From assembly GCA_028275775.1 (NCBI GenBank), contig JAPWTZ010000001.1, positions 1 through 32,000 on the forward strand: DNA of 32,000 nt, read 5' to 3'. Made by a program: the position numbers and the translations under genes. This document shows, one piece after another, positions 5,916 to 31,896 of the stretch (position 1 is the stretch's first letter; each line of letters begins with the position of its first letter). Source of the stretch: Candidatus Nanopusillus sp. Lineage in GTDB: Archaea; Nanobdellota; Nanobdellia; Nanobdellales; Nanobdellaceae. Under the pieces are notes generated by a model. The model worked only from the letters and a program-made list of their open reading frames with translations, was not told the DNA's origin and searched no databases.

Positions 5916-7331
5916 TTATTTTGTAATTCTTATAATTAATCCATTAGAATATTTAACTCTATCCCAAATTAAATATCTATATCTTAATTCTGCTCTTGGC
6001 AATTCTATATTTTTATATTCTTTTATATCTTTTGCTTCTAATGTATAAGAAATAACTATTTCTTCATTTCTTCTTATATTATCAAATTTCCAGTTTAAAC
6101 TATAATTATTATCTACCTTATAAACTGAAGATGGTTCTACAATTTTATATTCTTTTACTTTTAATGGTCCGTTTACCCTATCTATTAATTTAACCTGATT
6201 TAATGGAAATATACTTTTATTTTTTATATTTATTGTTACATCTATTGTTTCTTTATCCAAATCAATCCTCAATATTTCTTTTGATATTTCTATATTATCT
6301 CTTAAGAATATATAGAATATTATAAATAATATTAGGAGTACTGAAGCTATAATTTCTGCTAATAATAGATAGTTAAAGTTTTCGTATATTATATAAGATT
6401 GTCCTGGTAATAAAAACACATTATATATTGCATATTTAGATCCATTTATATTGCCAGTATAATATTGGTTTGGATAAAATGTAGAAAATATTCCATAATA
6501 ACTTTTTAAATAATATGTATAATTGATTGGATAATTGTATGGATTTGTTATATTTATTATATATTCTAATCCATTTTTAGTTATTTCTATTATTGGGGTT
6601 GTATTTAATTGAAAAACTGTGAAATTTAGATAATATGTATAATTATTTGAATATATTATTAAATGATGTTCTCCTATAGAAACATTATTCGATATAAATA
6701 TTGGAAATTGATATATATTTACTCCCGGACTTAATGTTTCATTATAAAATGCTGAAAAATTAAAATCAGAAGATATATTAATTGATAAATATTGACTGAA
6801 ATTGTTTGGATTATTTATTATTCCTATTAAATATATGAAACTATTTTGAGCTACTGTTGAACTTGATAATTCAAAGTTTATTGATAATGGTAAAATAATA
6901 GTTGAATTTGTTACAATTGGTTGACTATAATATAATACTGGAGTAAATTGGATTATATCCGAATAATATTCTGAGGTAATATTTAGATTATGCAAATATA
7001 CAACTATTTCTGGTATTTGATTAATAAAACCCAGGGGTCTCATATATATTTCTATTTCCTCTAATTGACCAGGATATAAATATCCAGAAACTAATGTATT
7101 ATTTTCTCCTATAATAAAGAACCATTGAGATGATAATGGTGAAATATCATAATAGTATGTATAATTTGTTGGATTATATATATTTATTTCATATATTGCA
7201 TAACTATTTGGATTAGATATATTAATTTGATTATTTATTACTGTTGGATATCCAACTATTGGCTGCTGTGAATAAATTTCTAACATTATTGGTATAATTA
7301 ACATACCCAACAAAATCTTCCTCCAATCCAT
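5916..7331 (-). CDS. Hypothetical signal-peptide membrane glycoprotein (sequon-dense ectodomain, one TM, C-terminal beta-rich domain)
   Basis: 471 aa. There is an N-terminal hydrophobic signal (ILLGMLIIPIMLEIYS), many N-x-S/T sequons, a TM segment (LLLAEIIASVLLILFIIFYIFL), then a ~125-aa domain. No confident family assignment. Confidence 0.6.
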   Translation of the reverse strand: MDWRKILLGMLIIPIMLEIYSQQPIVGYPTVINNQINISNPNSYAIYEINIYNPTNYTYYYDISPLSSQWFFIIGENNTLVSGYLYPGQLEEIEIYMRPLGFINQIPEIVVYLHNLNITSEYYSDIIQFTPVLYYSQPIVTNSTIILPLSINFELSSSTVAQNSFIYLIGIINNPNNFSQYLSINISSDFNFSAFYNETLSPGVNIYQFPIFISNNVSIGEHHLIIYSNNYTYYLNFTVFQLNTTPIIEITKNGLEYIINITNPYNYPINYTYYLKSYYGIFSTFYPNQYYTGNINGSKYAIYNVFLLPGQSYIIYENFNYLLLAEIIASVLLILFIIFYIFLRDNIEISKEILRIDLDKETIDVTINIKNKSIFPLNQVKLIDRVNGPLKVKEYKIVEPSSVYKVDNNYSLNWKFDNIRRNEEIVISYTLEAKDIKEYKNIELPRAELRYRYLIWDRVKYSNGLIIRITK

Positions 7332-18559: not shown

Positions 18560-19060
18560 TCACGATAGTGTATATCCAGTAGATACTGGATTATCATAAT
18601 AATATACATAAATAGTAGAACCACTCAAAGAAGATATTCCAAAACTATTCATATTAACGGTCATATTTATTTGAAATATTGAATTTTGAGGTATTGTACC
18701 ATTTATATATGAATTACCAGATGATGGATTTGTTATATTATATATGTAACATTCTAAATATCCTTGAGCATTTCCGCTTAAAACTACAGGACATTTTTGA
18801 CTATTTCCGTTGATAGAGGAAAATTCTACTAAAAGATTATTTGCAACTAATTGAGTAGATCCTATATTTTGGGCTAAAATTTCTATATTACCGTTTGAGT
18901 TATTATAAGTTACTTGTAATATTTCGACTTGAGCACCTAGATTTGTAACTTGATTACTTACATAACCCTTTGCCCATCCAACTATAATTGCACCTAAAGC
19001 TACTGTTAGAGCAATTAATATAATTGTTGCAATCAAAGGAGATACAGCTTTTATTTTCAT
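18560..19060 (-). CDS. Archaeal type IV pilin-like protein (class III signal peptide)
   Basis: 166 aa. The N-terminus MKIKAVSPLIATIILIALTVALGAIIVGW matches the archaeal pilin N-terminal motif (K-A/G then VSP[VL]IAT plus a hydrophobic helix). A sequon-rich beta domain follows. Confidence 0.75.
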   Translation of the reverse strand: MKIKAVSPLIATIILIALTVALGAIIVGWAKGYVSNQVTNLGAQVEILQVTYNNSNGNIEILAQNIGSTQLVANNLLVEFSSINGNSQKCPVVLSGNAQGYLECYIYNITNPSSGNSYINGTIPQNSIFQINMTVNMNSFGISSLSGSTIYVYYYDNPVSTGYTLS

Positions 19061-24579: not shown

Positions 24580-27500
24580 TTATGAATAAAATAGTTCATA
24601 ATTTCCAAATCCTTGGGGTATAAATGTATTATTTGTAGATATTATATTTCCATTACCTCCTACTATCTTTTCCACAATATAACTATTAGCAGGTGGTAGA
24701 TCAATAAATGTAACATTTCCATTTATATTTCCTATTATTGATATTCCTGCATAATAATTATATAATGTGTTATTTACATTTGTACTAGATATTACACTGC
24801 TTAAACTATTTATGAATCCTTGTGAATTATTATAATATACATTTACACTTCCTGTAGATGTTGTTAAATTATCTATATATCCACTTCCATATATTTCTAT
24901 ACCTAATTGTGAATTATATAATGATATGTTTGTTGCATTACCTGTTAAATAATATCCAAATAATCCTCCATTTGTTGTTACATTTATTATATTATTTGGT
25001 TGGGTTATATATAATCCAAATACTTGTCCTACTTTTATATAATCATTTTCTATATTATTTCCTGAAGATGTTAAATATATTCCAAATATATTTGATTGTA
25101 TATTATTATTTATTATATTATTGTTATTTCCATTGTTTATCTTTATTCCAAATATATTAGATATTACATTACTATTTTCTATTATATTATTTATTGCATT
25201 TCCATCAAAATCTATTCCAAATATTTGTCCATTTACATTTGAATTATTTATTATTACATTATATGGATTATCAATATATATTCCCCATACTGATGATTGA
25301 ATATTAGTATTTTCTATTGTTGAATTTTGTATATAACCATATATTCCTCCTATATTTCCATTTATTGTAGAATTATATACATTTATTATTGATGGATTCT
25401 TTATATTTATTCCAAATAATCCTGAATTTATATTATCATTTATTAAATTTAATTCTCCATTTTCTACATTTATTGCAAATAGATTTGTATTAATATTTAT
25501 ATTCTGTATTGTTACATTTGCTGATTCCACATCTATAACAGGCAATCCTGGATTTGCTGGTTCAAATAATGTATTTTGTCCTAATAATGTTATATTATTA
25601 CCTTGTGGATTTATTACTAAGTTTACTAAATATACTCCTGGAGAGAATACTACTACTGGTGTAGAACTATTAATTGCTGAATTTATTATTCCTTGTATTT
25701 GTGTATTACTTAATGTTGGATTTACTACAGATACATTATATGCATTTTGTGATATATATATTACCTGTGGACTTGTATATTGACTTATTCCATAATTATT
25801 ATATGCATATACCCGATACCATATTGAATAATATCCATTACTACCTAATTTTGCATATTGTTGTAATATTCCATTATATAATATATCTGAACATGAATCT
25901 GCTATTGTTATCCATTGATTACTTGTTTGATTTAATAATTGTATTTGACAATAATCCTGACCTAATGTATTATCATATACATTTGCACTAACTTCTAATA
26001 ACCATATATTTTCTTGTGTACCATTTGATGGTGTAGGATATACATATGATACATTAAACGTTGGTGGAGGTAATGTATAAACATATATTCCAGTTGAATT
26101 TGTTTGTCCAAAGGGATTTGATGTTGATAATTCTATTGTTATATTTCCACCATTTGGTATAATATTATATAATCCTGGTAAATTGTATGATGAATTTTCA
26201 TAATTTAATTGGATAATATTATTACCTGGTGTTACACTTATATTATATGTTTGTCCATTTATTGTTACATTTACATTTGGATAATTCGTATAGAATGATA
26301 TATTTAGTTGATAGTAATTTGATACAGAATTATTAGATGGAGAAATAATATATATTTCTGGATTAACTATAGGAATTACTGTAATTGTAGTAGAATTGGT
26401 AGCTCCATTTGATGCAACACCAGTTACTGTTACACTATAAGTACCCGGTTGTATATTACTATTTGCACTTACTGTTAAAGTTACTGATGCATTTGGAGTA
26501 ACCTGAGTACTTGATAGTGAACATTGTAGATTTGAATTATTTGTAGAACAAGAAAGAGTAACAGATGTAGAGGCTCCACCACTTAGCTGAGTAATATTTA
26601 TTATTGTAGAATTCGAAGAACCAGCATTTACATAGATACTGCTTGGTCCTTGTATAGAGAAGGAATATGGTTGTACATTAACTGTAATTGTAGTAGAATT
26701 GGTAGCACCGTTCTGTGCAGTACCTGAAATTGTTACAGAATATGTTCCTGGAGTAATTGAAGACGAAGCAGTAACAGTTAATGTTAATGATGCATTTGGA
26801 GTAACTTGAGTACTTGATAGTGAACATGATAAATAACTACTATTTGTAGAACAGGATAAGCTAACTGGTAATGGAGATCCACTATTTAATTGAGTAATAT
26901 TAATTGTTGCCGAATTAGAAGAACCCACATATGTATTAATACTGCTTGGTCCCTGTATTGTAAATGAATACGGTTGTACATTAACTGTAATTGTAGTAGA
27001 ATTGGTAGCTCCATTTGATGCAACACCAGTTACTGTTACACTATAAGTACCCGGTTGTATATTACTATTTGCACTTACTGTTAAAGTTACTGATGCATTT
27101 GGAGTAACAGTTGTATTAGATAATGAACAAGATAAATAGCTACTATTTGTAGAACAGGATAAAGTTACTGGTATTGGTGACCCATTATTTAGTTGATTTA
27201 CATATATTGTTGTAGAATTACTATAATTTGTATAAACGTATATACTACTTGGTCCTTGTATAGAGAAGGAATATGGTTGTACATTAACTGTAATTGTAGT
27301 AGAATTGGTAGCTCCATTCTGTGCAGTACCTGAAATTGTTACAGAATATGTTCCTGGAGTAATTAAAGACAAAGCAGTAACAGTTAATGTTACTGATGCA
27401 TTTGGAGTAACTTGAGTACTTGATAGTGAACATGTTAGATTTGAATTACTTGTTGAACAAGATAAAGTTACTGGCAAAGCAGTATTTCCAGTTAATTGAT

Positions 27501-28212
27501 TTACATATATTGTTGTAGAATTACTATAATTTGTATAAACATTTATACTACTTGGTCCTGTAATATCAAAAGTAAATACTGGAAATCCTAATACTAATGC
27601 AGAAACATACTCAGTTGATCCCCCACCTGGGGCAACGTTAAATGAAACCTTATAAGTACCTGGAGCTAAATCTTTACATATCGCAGCGTATACACTAGCT
27701 GCAGTTCCAGAAGATGTTAAAAATAATTGAGAACATCCAGTAGGTAATGTTATCCCACCAATATTACCTCCATTCTTCGTTCCTCCCGAGGATATTAATA
27801 TTAATACTGTCTCATTTTGTCCAGAAACAGTATATGAAACTGTTACTGCACTTCCTCTATTATATGTATTTGTAAAAGTAGTTAAAATAACTGGAACAGA
27901 ATAATTATTTAAAGAAACTCCACCAATTACATAACTTGTAGCTGTAGTAGTAAATGAACATGAATTTGTACTAGAATTTCCAATTACTGCATAACCTCCA
28001 TTATTTATCATTACATTAAAGCTTGGAGTAAGAGTTGAACCAGCAGAAGCAGCAACACAATAATATAAATTTGCTGTAGTTAATGTTATGCTCTTAGCCG
28101 CAGCACTATTACTTCCAACAATGTCTGCTCCTACCTGTGAATATATATTAAATGTAGAAATTAACAATAGAAAACTTACTATAGTAAAATATAGTATTTT
28201 CTTTATTCCCAT
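24580..28212 (-). CDS. Giant secreted surface protein: signal peptide, Cys-containing N-domain, 4 Ig-like ~100-aa tandem repeats, 2 further beta-sandwich regions and a right-handed parallel beta-helix (PbH1-type) domain
   Basis: 1210 aa. The N-terminal signal is KKILYFTIVSFLLLISTFNIYS. Repeats span aa 212-612. aa ~835-1112 show a 22-23-aa periodicity, N..I.....(F/W)GI.(I/L). IQGIINSAINSSTPVVVFSPGVYLV resembles a beta-helix N-cap. N-x-S/T sequons are very dense. There is no C-terminal TM. Confidence 0.8.
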   Translation of the reverse strand: MGIKKILYFTIVSFLLLISTFNIYSQVGADIVGSNSAAAKSITLTTANLYYCVAASAGSTLTPSFNVMINNGGYAVIGNSSTNSCSFTTTATSYVIGGVSLNNYSVPVILTTFTNTYNRGSAVTVSYTVSGQNETVLILISSGGTKNGGNIGGITLPTGCSQLFLTSSGTAASVYAAICKDLAPGTYKVSFNVAPGGGSTEYVSALVLGFPVFTFDITGPSSINVYTNYSNSTTIYVNQLTGNTALPVTLSCSTSNSNLTCSLSSTQVTPNASVTLTVTALSLITPGTYSVTISGTAQNGATNSTTITVNVQPYSFSIQGPSSIYVYTNYSNSTTIYVNQLNNGSPIPVTLSCSTNSSYLSCSLSNTTVTPNASVTLTVSANSNIQPGTYSVTVTGVASNGATNSTTITVNVQPYSFTIQGPSSINTYVGSSNSATINITQLNSGSPLPVSLSCSTNSSYLSCSLSSTQVTPNASLTLTVTASSSITPGTYSVTISGTAQNGATNSTTITVNVQPYSFSIQGPSSIYVNAGSSNSTIINITQLSGGASTSVTLSCSTNNSNLQCSLSSTQVTPNASVTLTVSANSNIQPGTYSVTVTGVASNGATNSTTITVIPIVNPEIYIISPSNNSVSNYYQLNISFYTNYPNVNVTINGQTYNISVTPGNNIIQLNYENSSYNLPGLYNIIPNGGNITIELSTSNPFGQTNSTGIYVYTLPPPTFNVSYVYPTPSNGTQENIWLLEVSANVYDNTLGQDYCQIQLLNQTSNQWITIADSCSDILYNGILQQYAKLGSNGYYSIWYRVYAYNNYGISQYTSPQVIYISQNAYNVSVVNPTLSNTQIQGIINSAINSSTPVVVFSPGVYLVNLVINPQGNNITLLGQNTLFEPANPGLPVIDVESANVTIQNININTNLFAINVENGELNLINDNINSGLFGINIKNPSIINVYNSTINGNIGGIYGYIQNSTIENTNIQSSVWGIYIDNPYNVIINNSNVNGQIFGIDFDGNAINNIIENSNVISNIFGIKINNGNNNNIINNNIQSNIFGIYLTSSGNNIENDYIKVGQVFGLYITQPNNIINVTTNGGLFGYYLTGNATNISLYNSQLGIEIYGSGYIDNLTTSTGSVNVYYNNSQGFINSLSSVISSTNVNNTLYNYYAGISIIGNINGNVTFIDLPPANSYIVEKIVGGNGNIISTNNTFIPQGFGNYELFYS
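24877..25710 (-). repeat. Degenerate ~66-69-nt coding periodicity (parallel beta-helix coils)
   Basis: On the + strand, 'tattccaaata'-like strings recur, being the reverse complement of the (I/L)FGI codons. At protein level there are at least 10 coils of the form N-x-x-I-x-x-N/S-x-F/W-G-I. Confidence 0.6.
26377..27579 (-). repeat. In-frame tandem DNA repeat (4 units of ~300-303 nt, with a 606-nt super-period) encoding the Ig-like repeats of the giant surface protein
   Basis: Read directly from the sequence: 26378-26502 is identical over 125 nt to 26984-27108 (offset 606). 26642-26760 is near-identical to 27248-27366 (offset 606). The motif ggttgtacattaactgtaattgtagtagaattggtagc recurs about every 303 nt. 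Confidence 0.9.
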
Positions 28213-28285
28213 AAGATATTAGGAAACATTGTCCAATATAAAATTATGATTGTTAATAAGCTTAATCATTTATGATAATCGAACC

Positions 28286-28359
28286 CGGGCCCGGGGGGAT
28301 TCGAACCCCCGATCTTCGGGTTAAAAGCCCGACGCTTTACCAGACTAAGCTACGGGCCC
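28286..28359 (-). tRNA. tRNA-Lys (anticodon UUU)
   Basis: The reverse complement folds as GGGCCCG-TA-GCTT-AGTCTGGTA-AAGC-G-TCGGG-CTTTTAA-CCCGA-AGATC-GGGGG-TTCGAAT-CCCCC-CGGGCCC-G. It is 74 nt with no intron and no encoded CCA. Confidence 0.9.
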
Positions 28360-28403
28360 AACAATATTTAATTTATATTTATGATTCTTATATAAATTTT
28401 TCA

Positions 28404-29090
28404 TTATCCATATAAAGATATATAGTTTATAGATCCATTGAAATATTGAAAATAATTTAAATATACTGTTGGATAAATGTTCATTAATATGTTTGGAAGA
28501 CCAACAATTTTATCCCCATTATACAAGTATAATACTGTATTATAATTATTTATAATTAAGAATTTTTCATTTGTATTTATATAAATACTAGAATTTCCAA
28601 TTAAATTAAAATAACAATATAAGAAAGTTCTTGTATATACACTAAAAAATGAAGAACTCAAATAATTGTTGCAATTATAATATGCAGAATTGTTTGTTAT
28701 ACTAATATTCTGTGTTGTTCCATAAATATAAACTTGCAAAATTGATGATACATTTATATTAGAGTTCTGTATTATTTCTATATTGTTTGAACCCATATTA
28801 TAAAAAAACTCTATACAATTATTGCAAATATATGGGTTTGTAGATAAAAATATAACATCGGGAGTATAATAATATGAAAAAGAAAAATCTGTATAATTAT
28901 ATACTATTTGAGGATTATAAAATTGAGAAAAATAAAAAGAACTAATATATAATTTTTGATATTCCGATATTTTATATAATCCAGTAGAATATTGAGATAA
29001 TCCATTGACTATATCTTGATACATATAAACTATGATATATAAAAATACAGCAAGTGTAATTAATACCTCAATCCAACTTTGAGATTTCAT
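28404..29090 (-). CDS. Hypothetical pilin/pseudopilin-like exported protein (TadE/Flp-like N-terminus)
   Basis: 228 aa. After a short polar N-terminus comes [24 protein letters not shown], an I-E-x-hydrophobic helix. The rest is Asn/Tyr/Ser-rich with Cys pairs (CNNC, CNN..). An ATGA overlap joins it to the upstream platform gene. The family call is tentative. Confidence 0.45.
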
Positions 29091-30367
29091 ATTGTTACAT
29101 TAATGTTTTGCTTTTGTATATATTTTTTCCCATTATAATTTAATATTGCTTCTATAATATATGTACCAGTGCTATTTAATTCAATAGATTGAGAATAATA
29201 TCCATTCTGTAATATTTGAAAATTCTGATAAACATAATTTCCAGCCGAATTTATTACATATATTGTTAATGGAGCATTTGTTATTGGTTGCGCATCAATA
29301 TATCCATATACTTGTATATTTATTGGAGTATATACATAAGCAGTTGTTGGAAAAACTTGTAAATTAAATGATACAAAAGAAGGTAGAACAAAAATTACTA
29401 TAGATAACAATCCTATTAAATTATTTATTGCTAAATGTTTTACTGAAGATCTCATTTTTCCACTTTCTGCAATACCCATTATAATTGATGCTGAAATTCC
29501 TACCATAATTATTGATAAAGATGTAATAAATTTTAACCATGAATAATTTATTTGAGAAGAAAAGAAATTAAATGTTGTATGAATAGTAGAAACAGAAATT
29601 TGACTTATTATCAATGGTTTAATTGTATTTAATATAGAAATCGATAATCCAATAAATATAATAAATATAGCATATAAAACCAATATTTGTTGTGATATAT
29701 ATGCTCTCTTTAATCCATCCAATTCCTTTATAGATTCTAAATCATTGTATAACCTTTTTAAAACCTTTGAAATATCACCTCCTCCTTTATATGTTTCTAG
29801 TATTACATAATTAATCATTCTTATATTTGGAAGTTCTTCAAAATACATATTAAATAATGTAAATGCCTTTTCAAATGGCATACCCCAAGCAATCCAATTA
29901 TACAATTTTTTAACTAAAAAAGATAAATATCCTAAATCTACTGAAGATAAATATGCAAGGGCATCTAATAATGTCATTCCAGATGATAAACTTTCAGACA
30001 AATAAGATAAAAAATATGTATAATTATTAGAAATATTTTCATATATTTTGCTTTCAATATACTTGTAAAATAGGTATGGAACTCCTCCTACAAGATATAT
30101 AACTATTATTAATATTGAAAATGTTATATAATTTTCATATAATTTAAATATTATCCCAAATATTCCAATAATTGCTGCAAATAAAATAGATATATATAGT
30201 ATAAACCTATCTTCCTTGATATACGAACCAAAAACATTTATTTCTTTATAATGCAATGGATCCTTTACATTAAAAATTTGATCTATAAATCTTTCAATTA
30301 ATCCCCTTTGATTTACTCTTTTATTATATGTATTAACTATCATTATACTTTTAATTTTGGATGTCAA
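29087..30367 (-). CDS. Type IV filament platform protein (single T2SSF domain; TadB/TadC/FlaJ-like) fused to a C-terminal extracellular beta-sandwich domain
   Basis: 426 aa from the TTG at 30367; the first ATG at 30343 gives 418 aa. The T2SSF-like core is FLSYLSESLSSGMTLLDALAYLS...GMPFEKAF...ILETYKGGGDISKVLKRL, flanked by TM helices. The last ~93 aa after the final TM are beta-rich. Confidence 0.7.
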   Translation of the reverse strand: MTSKIKSIMIVNTYNKRVNQRGLIERFIDQIFNVKDPLHYKEINVFGSYIKEDRFILYISILFAAIIGIFGIIFKLYENYITFSILIIVIYLVGGVPYLFYKYIESKIYENISNNYTYFLSYLSESLSSGMTLLDALAYLSSVDLGYLSFLVKKLYNWIAWGMPFEKAFTLFNMYFEELPNIRMINYVILETYKGGGDISKVLKRLYNDLESIKELDGLKRAYISQQILVLYAIFIIFIGLSISILNTIKPLIISQISVSTIHTTFNFFSSQINYSWLKFITSLSIIMVGISASIIMGIAESGKMRSSVKHLAINNLIGLLSIVIFVLPSFVSFNLQVFPTTAYVYTPINIQVYGYIDAQPITNAPLTIYVINSAGNYVYQNFQILQNGYYSQSIELNSTGTYIIEAILNYNGKKYIQKQNINVTI

Positions 30368-31227
30368 TATTTAAATATATGGCTAGTATACTTGATCAAT
30401 TTTTTAGTGGTATAGAAAAAGATTTATTAGCAATTAATTCTAAAGAAGATCCTTCTAAGTATATATATAAAGCTAAAATATATTCAATAGGAATATCTAT
30501 ATCTATATCAATATTAACATTTTTTTCTCTTTTAATATATAATATAAAAGTATATGGATCTTTTAATCCAATTTTTCCATTAATATTTGGAATACTTACT
30601 GGTATCCTAGGACTCTTTGGATCTTTATTTTTATTTAAGAAATATCCATCAATAGAAAAACAGAATAGAGCCAGAAAAATAGATAATTCTCTATATTATG
30701 CAGTGCTATATATGGCTTCTTTAGTTTCTTCTGGTGCAACTCCAAAAGCATTATTTGAATTATTATCAAAATATAGTGAATTTTCAGAAATAAAAAAAGA
30801 AGCATCTGAAATAATATACTTAATAGATACTGTAGGATTATCATTACCATTAGCATTAGAAAGAAAAGCAGAATATTCTCCGTCAAAGAAATGGGCTTCA
30901 ATATTAAATGGAATGAGATCTATAATAGTTGAAGGTGGAAATCTTGAAGAATATTTATATAATGAAGCTGAGAAATTATTTGATGAATATAAAAGAAAAA
31001 TAATAGAATATTCAAATAATATGCAAGTATTTTTAGAAATATATATTACATTAATAATTGTTGGGGTTATATTTGTAATTATATTAACTACATTAATGGG
31101 ATCTATTTCTGGAACAAACTTTCAATATATAGAATTTCTACAACTAATGAGTATATTAATAATATTACCAATGGGTACAGTTATGTTTATTATATTATTA
31201 AAATCGCTTAGCCCATTTGAAACATAG
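30361..31227 (+). CDS. Type IV filament platform protein (single T2SSF domain; TadB/TadC/FlaJ-like)
   Basis: 288 aa. After two TMs comes RARKIDNSLYYAVLYMASLVSSGATPKALFELL...GLSLPLALERKAEYSPSKKWASILNGMRSIIVEGGNLEEYL, followed by C-terminal TMs. This is the typical FlaJ/TadC half-domain pattern. Confidence 0.7.
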   Translation: MSIFKYMASILDQFFSGIEKDLLAINSKEDPSKYIYKAKIYSIGISISISILTFFSLLIYNIKVYGSFNPIFPLIFGILTGILGLFGSLFLFKKYPSIEKQNRARKIDNSLYYAVLYMASLVSSGATPKALFELLSKYSEFSEIKKEASEIIYLIDTVGLSLPLALERKAEYSPSKKWASILNGMRSIIVEGGNLEEYLYNEAEKLFDEYKRKIIEYSNNMQVFLEIYITLIIVGVIFVIILTTLMGSISGTNFQYIEFLQLMSILIILPMGTVMFIILLKSLSPFET

Positions 31228-31233
31228 TTATTT

Positions 31234-31896
31234 TTATTCTATACTAATATTAAGATTGTATATATTTAAAATATTTTGAACTAATTGATTATCATTTATT
31301 ACTTTAATTTCTCCATTTTCTAACCCACTTTTAATTATATCTACAAAATTTCCTTTTTCATATTTTAAATAATTCAAAATTTTCTCTGATATTGAATACG
31401 AAAGATAAATTATCAATGTATTATTTATATTATTTATATATGAAATTGGTATATTTGTAATTCCTTTACTAGTAAATACAAAAGCTCCACAAGAGTTATT
31501 TATACATAATATAAATGAATATTGAGGATACATAATATTTAATTTTGTATAATATAATTCATAATTTTCCATGTATAAAGAATTATTTAATAAATAACTA
31601 TCTACCTTATTAATAAATTCTATAGAAGTATTTGGATTACTAAAATTAAGATTTTTTGGATTAAATACACCATTTATCGACATCTTAATTATATCATAAG
31701 TTGTTAGATTTAGTTCATAATATCCAATTTCAGTCTCATTATCTGAAATATTATAAATATATGGTAATTTAAGAGAATATATTGGATAAAATAGATATCT
31801 ATAGATTATTGATGCAAAGATCATAAAAATTGAAAATATTATCAAAAAAATCAAAATTTTATCTCTAATAGATGACTTCTTCAATATTTCTTTCAT
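31234..31896 (-). CDS. Hypothetical N-terminally membrane-anchored protein
   Basis: 220 aa. The single N-terminal TM is ILIFLIIFSIFMIFASIIY, followed by a sequon-containing ectodomain. No family recognised. It is convergent with the platform gene, with a 6-nt spacer. Confidence 0.45.
   Translation of the reverse strand: MKEILKKSSIRDKILIFLIIFSIFMIFASIIYRYLFYPIYSLKLPYIYNISDNETEIGYYELNLTTYDIIKMSINGVFNPKNLNFSNPNTSIEFINKVDSYLLNNSLYMENYELYYTKLNIMYPQYSFILCINNSCGAFVFTSKGITNIPISYINNINNTLIIYLSYSISEKILNYLKYEKGNFVDIIKSGLENGEIKVINDNQLVQNILNIYNLNISIE

Follow-up and report, generated by a model that had tools for sequence, protein, structure and literature searches.

How is the membrane platform of a type IV pilus put to use when its genes stand apart from any assembly ATPase or prepilin peptidase, and to which kind of machine does such a platform belong? 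The question is raised by a stretch of 32,000 nucleotides (nt) from Candidatus Nanopusillus sp. (GenBank assembly GCA_028275775.1, contig JAPWTZ010000001.1, positions 1 to 32,000; here called the window). Near its end, two open reading frames (ORFs) of 426 and 288 amino acids (aa), divergent and on opposite strands, encode platform-like proteins, and the genes on either side encode two anchored proteins of 228 and 220 aa (p228 and p220). An earlier interpretation made from the DNA letters only (the sequence-only reading) had taken this group for a Tad/Epd-like minimal type IV filament module. Our profile comparisons indicate that the two ORFs encode complementary N- and C-terminal halves of one two-domain platform. 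The reading that we favor, with a probability of roughly 70%, is that an archaeal type IV pilus machine of the PilB3/afGspE kind ("Clade 2") draws its inner-membrane platform from this locus. The platform would consist of two polypeptides that go back to an ancient gene fission, would be served by an ATPase acting in trans, and would be coupled to p228.

The two platform genes match complementary halves of a two-domain protein

We compared both ORFs with the Pfam and NCBIfam models. As the sequence-only reading had proposed, each contains a single T2SSF domain (PF00482), at residues 119 to 245 of the 426-aa ORF (52.3 bits) and at residues 116 to 242 of the 288-aa ORF (60.7 bits), above the Pfam gathering threshold of 25.2 bits. 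In NCBIfam, the 288-aa protein aligned to the N-terminal halves of the ArlJ, UpsF, and BasF models, and the 426-aa protein aligned to positions 188 to 453 of an ArlJ model with 465 positions, every score staying well under the cutoff of its family. Profiles of our own, built from the N-half and C-half families, were scored on a fused 588-aa platform protein (P0047) of a related system (locus L085), which is encoded directly after an ATPase with T2SSE and PilB3_C domains and before pilin genes. The N-half profile scored 148.5 bits over residues 6 to 286 and 5.3 bits on the C-terminal half; conversely, the C-half profile scored 107.4 bits over residues 303 to 584 and 0.4 bits on the N-terminal half. 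The two profiles are also homologous to each other, with an hhalign probability of 88% over the cytoplasmic domain. By these alignments, the 288-aa and 426-aa ORFs are the complementary N-half and C-half of a two-domain platform.

A hydropathy scan placed four transmembrane (TM) helices in the N-half and five in the C-half, matching the published TM counts. In each half, the same scan found about 130 aa with many K/R and D/E residues separating TM2 from TM3; this loop corresponds to the cytoplasmic domain. The C-half continues after TM5 into a 92-aa tail that is predicted to lie outside the cell and that gave weak matches to the beta-sandwich families DUF3244 and MG2. This tail aligned with the tails of C-halves of 377 to 388 aa from five further DPANN loci (labeled Woesearchaeota, Nanoarchaeia, and Nanobdellati). 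It was absent from the C-halves of about 290 to 317 aa that were checked in Aenigmatarchaeota, Undinarchaeota, Micrarchaeota, and two nanohaloarchaeal genomes. Sequence searches of the PDB with each half and with a 28-sequence N-half profile found no PilC, GspF, or Tad platform.

A further reading, found in several automatic annotations, is that the two ORFs are the archaellum platform, ArlJ/FlaJ, in split form. The ArlJ models are the top NCBIfam matches, a Joint Genome Institute (JGI) label reads "archaellum biogenesis protein FlaJ," and both Nanopusillus and Nanobdella make archaella (PMC4935971; PMC11104419). However, the scores fall far under the ArlJ equivalog cutoffs (94 versus 550 bits and 56.7 versus 400 bits), and a separate full-length FlaJ (arCOG01809) is present both in N. 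acidilobi (Nps_02340, 10 TM; PMC4935971) and in Nst1 (549 aa; Makarova 2016 supplementary table). Moreover, the orthologues in other DPANN archaea sit with PilA-type pilins and a PilB3_C ATPase, and no archaellin or ArlF/G gene was seen in these loci, for which no profile search aimed at such genes was made. We consider a split ArlJ very unlikely.

The sequence-only reading had also stated that archaeal platforms usually carry two T2SSF domains in one polypeptide. This is only partly true, as two-gene platforms are common in archaea (PMC4858521; PMC6668835) and are also described in a recent preprint (bioRxiv 10.64898/2026.04.22.720090). It had further held that a simple gene split would speak against its proposal. 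The ORFs do map as N- and C-halves, but the split is ancient and conserved and not a recent break. The N-half family keeps a highly constant length of about 282 aa across DPANN, and judged from these family comparisons the division of the platform is common to DPANN. Denise et al. assigned TadC to the N-half and TadB to the C-half in 2019 and read this as gene fission (PMC6668835). Since TadC and TadB are themselves N- and C-halves, mapping the ORFs to halves cannot separate the competing hypotheses.

Orthologous operons point to a PilB3/afGspE-type machine

We scanned one genome per species for related loci and annotated the resulting 77 loci with our own profiles. In about 60 DPANN loci, from Aenigmatarchaeota, Undinarchaeota, Woesearchaeota, Nanohaloarchaeota, Micrarchaeota, and others, the genes for the ATPase, the N-half, and the C-half follow one another on the same strand with tiny gaps, and pilin genes lie upstream. 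The upstream proteins with class III signals comprise one or two PilA-type pilins (KG↓ITPIIAIIVLL..., where the arrow marks the cleavage site), a "Y" pilin of about 210 aa (KA↓QTQAVTLVL...), and an "X" pilin of about 140 aa (KG↓Q..VFEQVLLF...) that precedes the ATPase. With lengths of 140 to 215 aa and globular domains, the pilins of these operons are not Flp-like. The operon ATPase carries T2SSE and PilB3_C domains, and its closest solved relatives are GspE of A. fulgidus (2OAP; 388 bits), FlaI (290 bits), and CpaF (170 bits).

The Nanopusillaceae depart from this order. In all 14 of their loci (the window, N. acidilobi, Nst1, YN1, Nanobdella aerobiophila, and several metagenome-assembled genomes), the C-half gene is inverted relative to the N-half gene, p228 follows the C-half, the p220 gene is convergent, and no ATPase lies within 10 kb. 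This inverted, ATPase-less arrangement is restricted to the Nanopusillaceae. Hidden Markov models of X, of Y, and of a cytoplasmic "EYEVIP" protein found no match in any Nanopusillaceae locus fetched. That the locus lacks ATPase and peptidase neighbors had been pointed out before, and it holds on both sides. Among the upstream ORFs (28 kb), we saw neither a T2SSE ATPase nor a prepilin peptidase, with profile scans covering only eight window ORFs. For the 9 kb past the window end, the gene calls of a metagenome contig with an identical 288-aa protein likewise include neither a secretion ATPase nor a prepilin peptidase. The locus does not represent a minimal design but a single, dispersed part of a machine, the rest of which is found at other places of a scrambled genome.

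These operons also bear on the proposal of the sequence-only reading, in which the two genes would truly belong to the Epd/Tad lineage, an archaeal sister of bacterial Tad, and p228 would be a TadE/Flp-like pseudopilin. In its favor, there are two genes with one T2SSF domain each, and they map to N- and C-halves as TadC and TadB do (PMC6668835). A "System 1" defined in the 2026 preprint groups DPANN two-platform loci with Epd (bioRxiv 10.64898/2026.04.22.720090), and p228 shares with Flp/TadE and the Epd pilins a Glu at +5, counted from a putative K-[S/G/A] cleavage site. On the other hand, the ATPase of the orthologous operons has a PilB3_C domain and scores higher with afGspE and FlaI than with CpaF, and the accompanying pilins have globular domains. 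Makarova, Koonin & Albers reported in 2016 that many Clade 2 loci, and Clade 4 as well, have two tadC-like genes, so the split is not diagnostic of Epd/Tad. Their supplement places three Nst1 ATPases in Clade 2 and apparently none in Clade 1 (Epd), the latter resting on a reading of the column order. Furthermore, the TadE (PF07811), Flp (PF04964), and Class_III signal (PF04021) profiles miss p228 at an E value of ≤1, and neither an EppA/TadV-like peptidase nor a TadZ-like ATPase was seen among the window ORFs and the 9-kb extension, as judged from ORF translations and gene-call Pfam labels with eight ORFs profile scanned. At the level of sequence, nothing measured ties the locus specifically to the Epd/Tad lineage, and we regard this membership as unlikely.

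Several of the orthologous loci contain further recurrent genes. Many DPANN operons (L030, L031, L038, L050, L070, and L074 to L083) have, ahead of their pilin genes, a gene for a conserved cytoplasmic protein of about 150 aa that starts ..EEYEVIPTSPIRRLEKR..; a gene for a protein of about 550 aa often lies before it. The Nanopusillaceae loci fetched contained no counterpart of the 150-aa protein. KaiC-like ATPases (PF06745) occur near ATPase-platform operons of Aenigmatarchaeota (L002, 1900 to 2628; L006, 6185 to 6913) and near the fused platform (L085, 13196 to 15503); none is found near the Nanopusillus platform genes. Makarova et al. made the same observation for type IV pilus regulators in 2016.

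Gene starts, spacer, and overlap are conserved

The lengths of 426 and 288 aa follow from a mechanical ORF call, and comparison with relatives and with gene callers indicates that both starts are probably too long, the true products being 418 aa (C-half) and 282 aa (N-half). The gene callers start the C-half at the ATG at 30343, which gives 418 aa. The TTG-extended form is missing in three Nanopusillus genomes, in which the only start is the ATG equivalent to 30343. Similarly, in an alignment of 11 Nanopusillaceae genomes, the N-half ATG at 30361 is not present in YN1, Nanobdella, and KM4331, where the upstream TTG of the C-half is not conserved either, and the ATG at 30379 is invariant; a start there yields 282 aa, the modal length of the family. 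With starts at 30343 and 30379, the divergent genes begin 35 nt apart and do not overlap. We rejected the 7-nt overlap of the mechanical ORF starts (30361 to 30367) as an artefact of the rule that takes the first possible start codon. A Nanopusillus metagenome bin contains a protein 100% identical to the 426-aa ORF, and Nps_01915 of N. acidilobi is 96% identical to this ORF.

The spacer between the two start codons is more conserved than its surroundings. In the same alignment, 21 of its 35 positions are invariant, compared to 0 of the 21 nt of coding sequence before it and 1 of the 19 nt after the ATG. A TATA-like box, TTTTAATT, occupies 30349 to 30356, about 26 nt upstream of the N-half ATG, and a second, TTTAAATA, lies on the other strand at 30370 to 30377, about 30 nt upstream of the C-half ATG. 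Archaeal TATA boxes usually lie about 26 nt before the transcript start. Because the distances from box to ATG match this spacing, we infer that the spacer may act as a compact bidirectional promoter that gives rise to two (nearly) leaderless mRNAs, so that both halves would be coexpressed.

At the other end of the C-half gene, the plus strand reads tcat at 29087 to 29090, that is, ATGA on the minus strand. The overlap that the sequence-only reading had described is thus real, and the identical 4 nt are kept in 14 of 14 Nanopusillaceae loci and in one more locus (L087). This suggests translational coupling of the C-half and p228.

We determined the ratio of nonsynonymous to synonymous substitution rates (dN/dS) for the window genes against five other Nanopusillus genomes; there were no internal stops. 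The values were 0.08 to 0.15 for p228, 0.09 to 0.21 for the C-half, 0.11 to 0.16 for the N-half, and about 0.20 for p220. All four genes are under purifying selection and are maintained. A recent gene split or pseudogene is ruled out by the family-wide conservation of length together with the dN/dS of 0.08 to 0.21. The same data bear on whether the locus could be a decaying, nonfunctional remnant left when an operon broke up. Such a reading would fit the reduced and scrambled state of nanoarchaeal genomes, the lack of an adjacent ATPase, and a proteomic data set in which none of the four proteins was detected, although membrane proteins are often missed by this method. Against decay, the four ORFs are intact in 14 genomes at identities down to 45 to 55%, the dN/dS values are low, and both the overlap and the spacer are conserved. 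A remnant is therefore highly improbable.

p228 is a small family locked to the C-half

The p228 gene lies directly downstream of the C-half gene in the 14 Nanopusillaceae loci and in two distant relatives. A word-seeded homology search found p228 homologues only in Nanopusillaceae, and a profile search of 1.84 billion representatives defined a family of 15 proteins of 197 to 252 aa. The two distant members (28 to 30% identity) stand directly behind a C-half that has the immunoglobulin (Ig)-like tail; the surrounding genes differ in one of them.

The N-terminal consensus of the family is M-[K71/R29]-[S76/G12/N6]-x-x-W-I-E-F-L-I-T-F (numbers are percentages). W and E are invariant in the 17 members that have an N-terminus, and one further relative has an Asp as its third residue (position -1). 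All 18 aligned sequences share Q45, N91, C140, and C159, and two further Cys residues are conserved in most members beside the two invariant ones. The N-terminus can be read as a putative class III signal, with a 3-residue leader, cleavage after K-[S/G/A], often a Gln at +1, and a Glu at +5. It closely resembles MKG↓QNAVFEQVLLF, a short-leader form of the X pilin in which one more residue stands before the Glu. We considered descent of p228 from the X (about 140 aa) or the Y (about 210 aa) pilin and rejected it, the hhalign probability being <1% and the similarity being confined to the N-terminal motif.

AlphaFold2, given 18 sequences, predicted a helix at residues 2 to 57 followed by a beta domain of 11 strands, with a predicted local distance difference test score (pLDDT) of 89.4 and a predicted template modeling score (pTM) of 0.75; a model from 7 sequences was poor (pLDDT of 52.6). 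The beta domain has a jelly-roll/C1q-like resemblance at nonsignificant levels only. The sequence-only reading had seen at the start of p228 a class III signal of the Flp/TadE kind. The conserved N-terminus, the Glu at +5, and the pilin-shaped model uphold the class III-like part, but neither the TadE (PF07811) nor the Flp (PF04964) profile matches the protein, and p228 departs from the FlaFind-type consensus. Together, these data make it likely that p228 is a pilin-like protein working at the platform. Whether a prepilin peptidase processes it stands, from its N-terminal residues, at roughly even odds.

Candidate partner genes and a working model

In the published gene table of N. acidilobi (Wurch et al. 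2016, PMC4935971 Suppl. Data 1), Nps_01915 and Nps_01920 are both called "Flp pilus assembly protein TadC" (arCOG01808), with 5 and 4 TM domains; Nps_01910 is uncharacterized, with 1 TM domain and no signal-peptide call, and Nps_01925 is also uncharacterized. The other parts of such machines are spread over the genome (PMC4935971). They include FlaI with FlaH and FlaD/E (Nps_00925 to Nps_00940), a T2SSF/ATPase pair (Nps_02245/02250), a canonical ATPase/4-TM/5-TM trio (Nps_03260/03255/03250), an ATPase with a 6-TM TadC (Nps_03100/03105), and a lone 4-TM TadC (Nps_02675). An orphan ATPase, Nps_01175, has two single-TM genes upstream and RPA downstream, and MinD-like arCOG00589 genes also occur elsewhere. 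Nps_01175, Nps_03100, and Nps_03260 are the three pilus ATPases assigned to arCOG01817. The idea that our pair is the only type IV pilus platform of the genome is ruled out, as the table lists the full-length FlaJ and two further TadC sets. Jarett et al. likewise reported in 2018 multiple FlaJ/TadC homologues and two pilus systems in Nanoarchaeota. By elimination, and from the kept layout of two small anchored proteins followed by an ATPase, Nps_01175 is a candidate partner ATPase of the window platform.

The genome of N. acidilobi, about 0.6 Mb, thus holds five secretion ATPases and eight platform-type genes, six of them "TadC" (PMC4935971). Its three 4-TM/5-6-TM TadC sets are at different stages of dispersal, and Nps_01175 and Nps_02675 stand alone.

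In the model that we favor, the N-half and C-half would associate in the membrane and rebuild a pseudo-twofold platform, on which a hexameric ATPase would drive the insertion of pilin subunits. An ancestral operon of pilins, ATPase, N-half, and C-half would have been broken up in the Nanopusillaceae, with the C-half inverted and the ATPase placed elsewhere; Nps_01175 of N. acidilobi could then act in trans. Both halves may have stayed coexpressed from leaderless transcripts that start in the conserved 35-nt bidirectional spacer. p228, coupled to the C-half, would probably dock its N-terminal helix in the platform and serve as a minor pilin, a priming pilin, or an accessory fixed at the pilus base. 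Host-cell adhesion or recognition would be a likely role of such a pilus.

Several points weigh against this model. The TATA-like boxes are low-information sequences at a G+C content of 23%, and the partner ATPase is assigned by elimination only. In p228, the small residue and the Glu at +5 fit a class III signal, but the protein misses the FlaFind-type consensus in that +3 is a Trp and -1 is mostly Ser, with one Asn and one Asp. A Foldseek search of the PDB with the p228 model gave no significant match (best E of 0.06), p228 matched none of the Pfam/NCBIfam pilin, TadE, Flp, and class III profiles (E of ≤1 for Pfam), and hhalign gave a probability of <1% against the X and Y pilins of the DPANN operons. 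A weak further point is that none of the four locus proteins was detected in the N. acidilobi proteome (PMC4935971 Suppl. Data 1).

Most of these points concern p228, and they lend weight to a variant in which the platform is read correctly and p228 is not a pilin. It would instead be an unprocessed, anchored surface protein (an adhesin, an S-layer protein, an ArlF/ArlG-like stator at the pilus base, or a chaperone of the C-half tail), cotranslated with the C-half by chance. Such a protein would account for the one TM helix and the missing signal-peptide call in the published table, for the residues at -1, for the lack of homology to known pilin families or to X and Y, for a beta domain whose jelly-roll/C1q-like resemblance is nonsignificant, and for a length, 228 aa, that is large for a major pilin. 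However, the invariant W and E and the highly conserved [KR]-[S/G/A] pair would be unusual for a plain anchor. The motif nearly copies MKG↓Q..VFEQVLLF of the pilin that stands before the ATPase in DPANN operons, and a 56-residue N-terminal helix followed by a beta domain is the shape of a pilin. We give this variant somewhat better than one-in-three chances.

At the other extreme, p228, the tailed split platform, and an ATPase in trans might build a filament specific to the Nanopusillaceae, with p228 as a new class of archaeal pilin cut at MK[S/G]↓Q-x-W-I-E and carrying its Glu at +5 in the bacterial style. We think this improbable. A candidate for such a filament is the second appendage that cryo-electron tomography revealed on Nanobdella aerobiophila, which is rough, 15 nm wide, and left unidentified in that work.

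Layout of the locus and other genes of the window

Table 1 lists the features of the locus. The tRNA-Lys gene marks the end of the C-half/p228 unit. On the other side, p220, a Nanopusillaceae-specific protein, has an N-terminal anchor, nine N-glycosylation sequons, and two Cys residues, and the Pfam/NCBIfam scans gave it no family match. Its gene converges on the N-half gene, a position kept in all Nanopusillaceae loci. It lies directly downstream of S28e, L24e, and NDK on the same strand and may be the last gene of that cluster; its membership in the pilus system is uncertain. The 9 kb past the window end encode p220, NDK, L24e, S28e, a 1192-aa protein, and glycosylation genes. In the Nanopusillaceae, p220 thus lies between the N-half gene and the nucleoside diphosphate kinase gene (NDK), and in two loci of Aenigmatarchaeota (L002 and L006, about 16.3 to 17.2 kb) an opposite-strand NDK gene is found a few kilobases downstream of the platform genes. 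This proximity may be a remnant of an old synteny in which the N-half stayed and the C-half moved.

TABLE 1 Positions of the platform locus and of two further features in the 32,000-nt window
Feature	Position	Strand	Remarks
PilA-type class III signal protein	18560-19060	-	Pilin_N and arch_flag_Nterm matches
tRNA-Lys (TTT)	28285-28360	-	ARAGORN; directly downstream of p228
p228, pilin-like, N-terminal membrane anchor	28404-29090	-	228-aa ORF; Nps_01910 of N. acidilobi, uncharacterized there
ATGA overlap of C-half stop codon and p228 start codon	29087-29090	-	Read from the sequence
Platform C-half (TadB equivalent), Nps_01915	29087-30343	-	Probably 418 aa; mechanical ORF 29087-30367, 426 aa
Spacer between divergent start codons	30344-30378	No strand	35 nt; alignment
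Platform N-half (TadC equivalent), Nps_01920	30379-31227	+	Probably 282 aa; mechanical ORF 30361-31227, 288 aa
p220, N-terminal anchor, Nps_01925	31234-31896	-	220-aa ORF

The remainder of the window, with a G+C content of 23% overall, contains archaeal housekeeping genes, among them those for topoisomerase VI A and B, aIF5B, Kae1, and enolase. The PilA-type protein in Table 1 begins MKIKA↓VSPLIATIILIALTVALG (MKIKA↓VSPLIATII...), scores 25.3 bits with Pilin_N and 31 bits with arch_flag_Nterm, and matches our own profile of the PilA-type pilins of DPANN operons with an E value of 8.6e-11. In N. acidilobi it is annotated "Flagellar protein G" (Nps_01855, arCOG03871; Wurch 2016). It is possibly a filament subunit from elsewhere, belonging to the archaellum or to a pilus. 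A secreted protein of 1210 aa with a Sec-type signal (24580 to 28212, minus strand; Nps_01900, arCOG06957) consists of about five tandem Ig-like repeats of about 95 aa (FTFDITGPSSINVY...TVNVQPYSF) and a C-terminal half of short N/I/G-rich repeats that resembles beta-helix proteins. The G+C fraction is 0.30 to 0.32 at 26 to 28 kb, compared to about 0.23 elsewhere. A distant relative (L004) has no equivalent of the 1210-aa protein at this position, so the protein is not a fixed part of the pilus locus. Finally, a 471-aa ORF near the topoisomerase VI genes (5916 to 7331, minus strand) has a signal-like segment at its N-terminus, contains many N-x-S/T sequons, and becomes hydrophobic around residue 330. 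Among families it matched only Top6b_C, and weakly (E of 0.016); its product is probably a surface glycoprotein. Mechanical ORF calling also produced artefacts in this AT-rich sequence (30361 to 30367; 30635 to 30901, minus strand; 24858 to 25991, plus strand), namely, over-long starts and several low-complexity ORFs of 59 to 105 aa antisense to real genes.

Significance and comparison with known systems

Nanopusillus and its relatives are obligate ectosymbionts with tiny genomes. An archaellum and several type IV pilus systems, thought to serve in finding the host and attaching to it, have nonetheless been retained in these genomes. The locus studied here is a known kind of system and mostly ordinary; the platform genes were already annotated, and the new details are modest. 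New are the explicit pairing of N-half and C-half, the finding that the inversion and the separation from the ATPase are specific to the Nanopusillaceae, the conservation of the spacer, the tail that the C-half is predicted to bear outside the cell, and the recognition of p228 as a small pilin-like family that keeps to the C-half. The ATPase-less pair is a maintained, complementary platform with a likely partner ATPase and a dedicated pilin-like partner. The locus also illustrates how a conserved operon can be dismantled in a scrambled genome, with coexpression apparently kept through the shared spacer. The picture of the origin of Tad pili is unchanged. The gene set can be tested in cultivable relatives, in MJ1_0432 and its neighbors of Nanobdella aerobiophila and in YN1_0020 to YN1_0040 of YN1, with MJ1_0432 and YN1_0020 as the p228 genes.

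The published genes Nps_01915/01920 of N. acidilobi and Nst1_571/572 are the same genes, at 94 to 96% identity, but the published gene table is silent on the complementary halves, their arrangement, and the partner ATPase. As for p228, minor pilins and pseudopilins (TadE/TadF) and the pilin-like archaellum proteins ArlF/ArlG resemble it in having a hydrophobic N-terminal helix ahead of a beta-rich domain outside the cell, and their genes too adjoin assembly genes. In contrast to these proteins, p228 has no sequence or profile similarity to them, and its putative signal is noncanonical, with a 3-residue leader and mostly Ser at -1.

ArlJ/FlaJ belongs to the same T2SSF superfamily and provides the best NCBIfam models, but the window proteins differ from it in their scores, in their neighbors, and in coexisting with a separate full-length FlaJ. 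TadB/TadC of bacterial Tad and EpdJ/EpdK of Methanococcus Epd present the same two genes with one T2SSF domain each, one gene matching the N-half and the other the C-half of two-domain platforms. They are set apart from the window by the ATPase of the orthologous operons and by the locus itself, in which there is no short Flp/EpdE-type pilin, dedicated peptidase, or TadZ and the genes are not in tandem. The system label, Clade 2 or the "System 1"/Epd of the preprint, is unsettled. The Clade 2 pili (PilB3/PilC3 of Haloferax volcanii and the GspE type of A. fulgidus) share with the orthologous DPANN operons an ATPase of T2SSE plus PilB3_C and the accompanying PilA-type pilins. Compared to these pili, the window has divergent halves that are unlinked from the ATPase and the pilins and, unlike those of about 60 orthologous DPANN loci, do not stand in tandem beside the ATPase gene; its C-half bears an external Ig-like tail and has the lineage-specific p228 attached.

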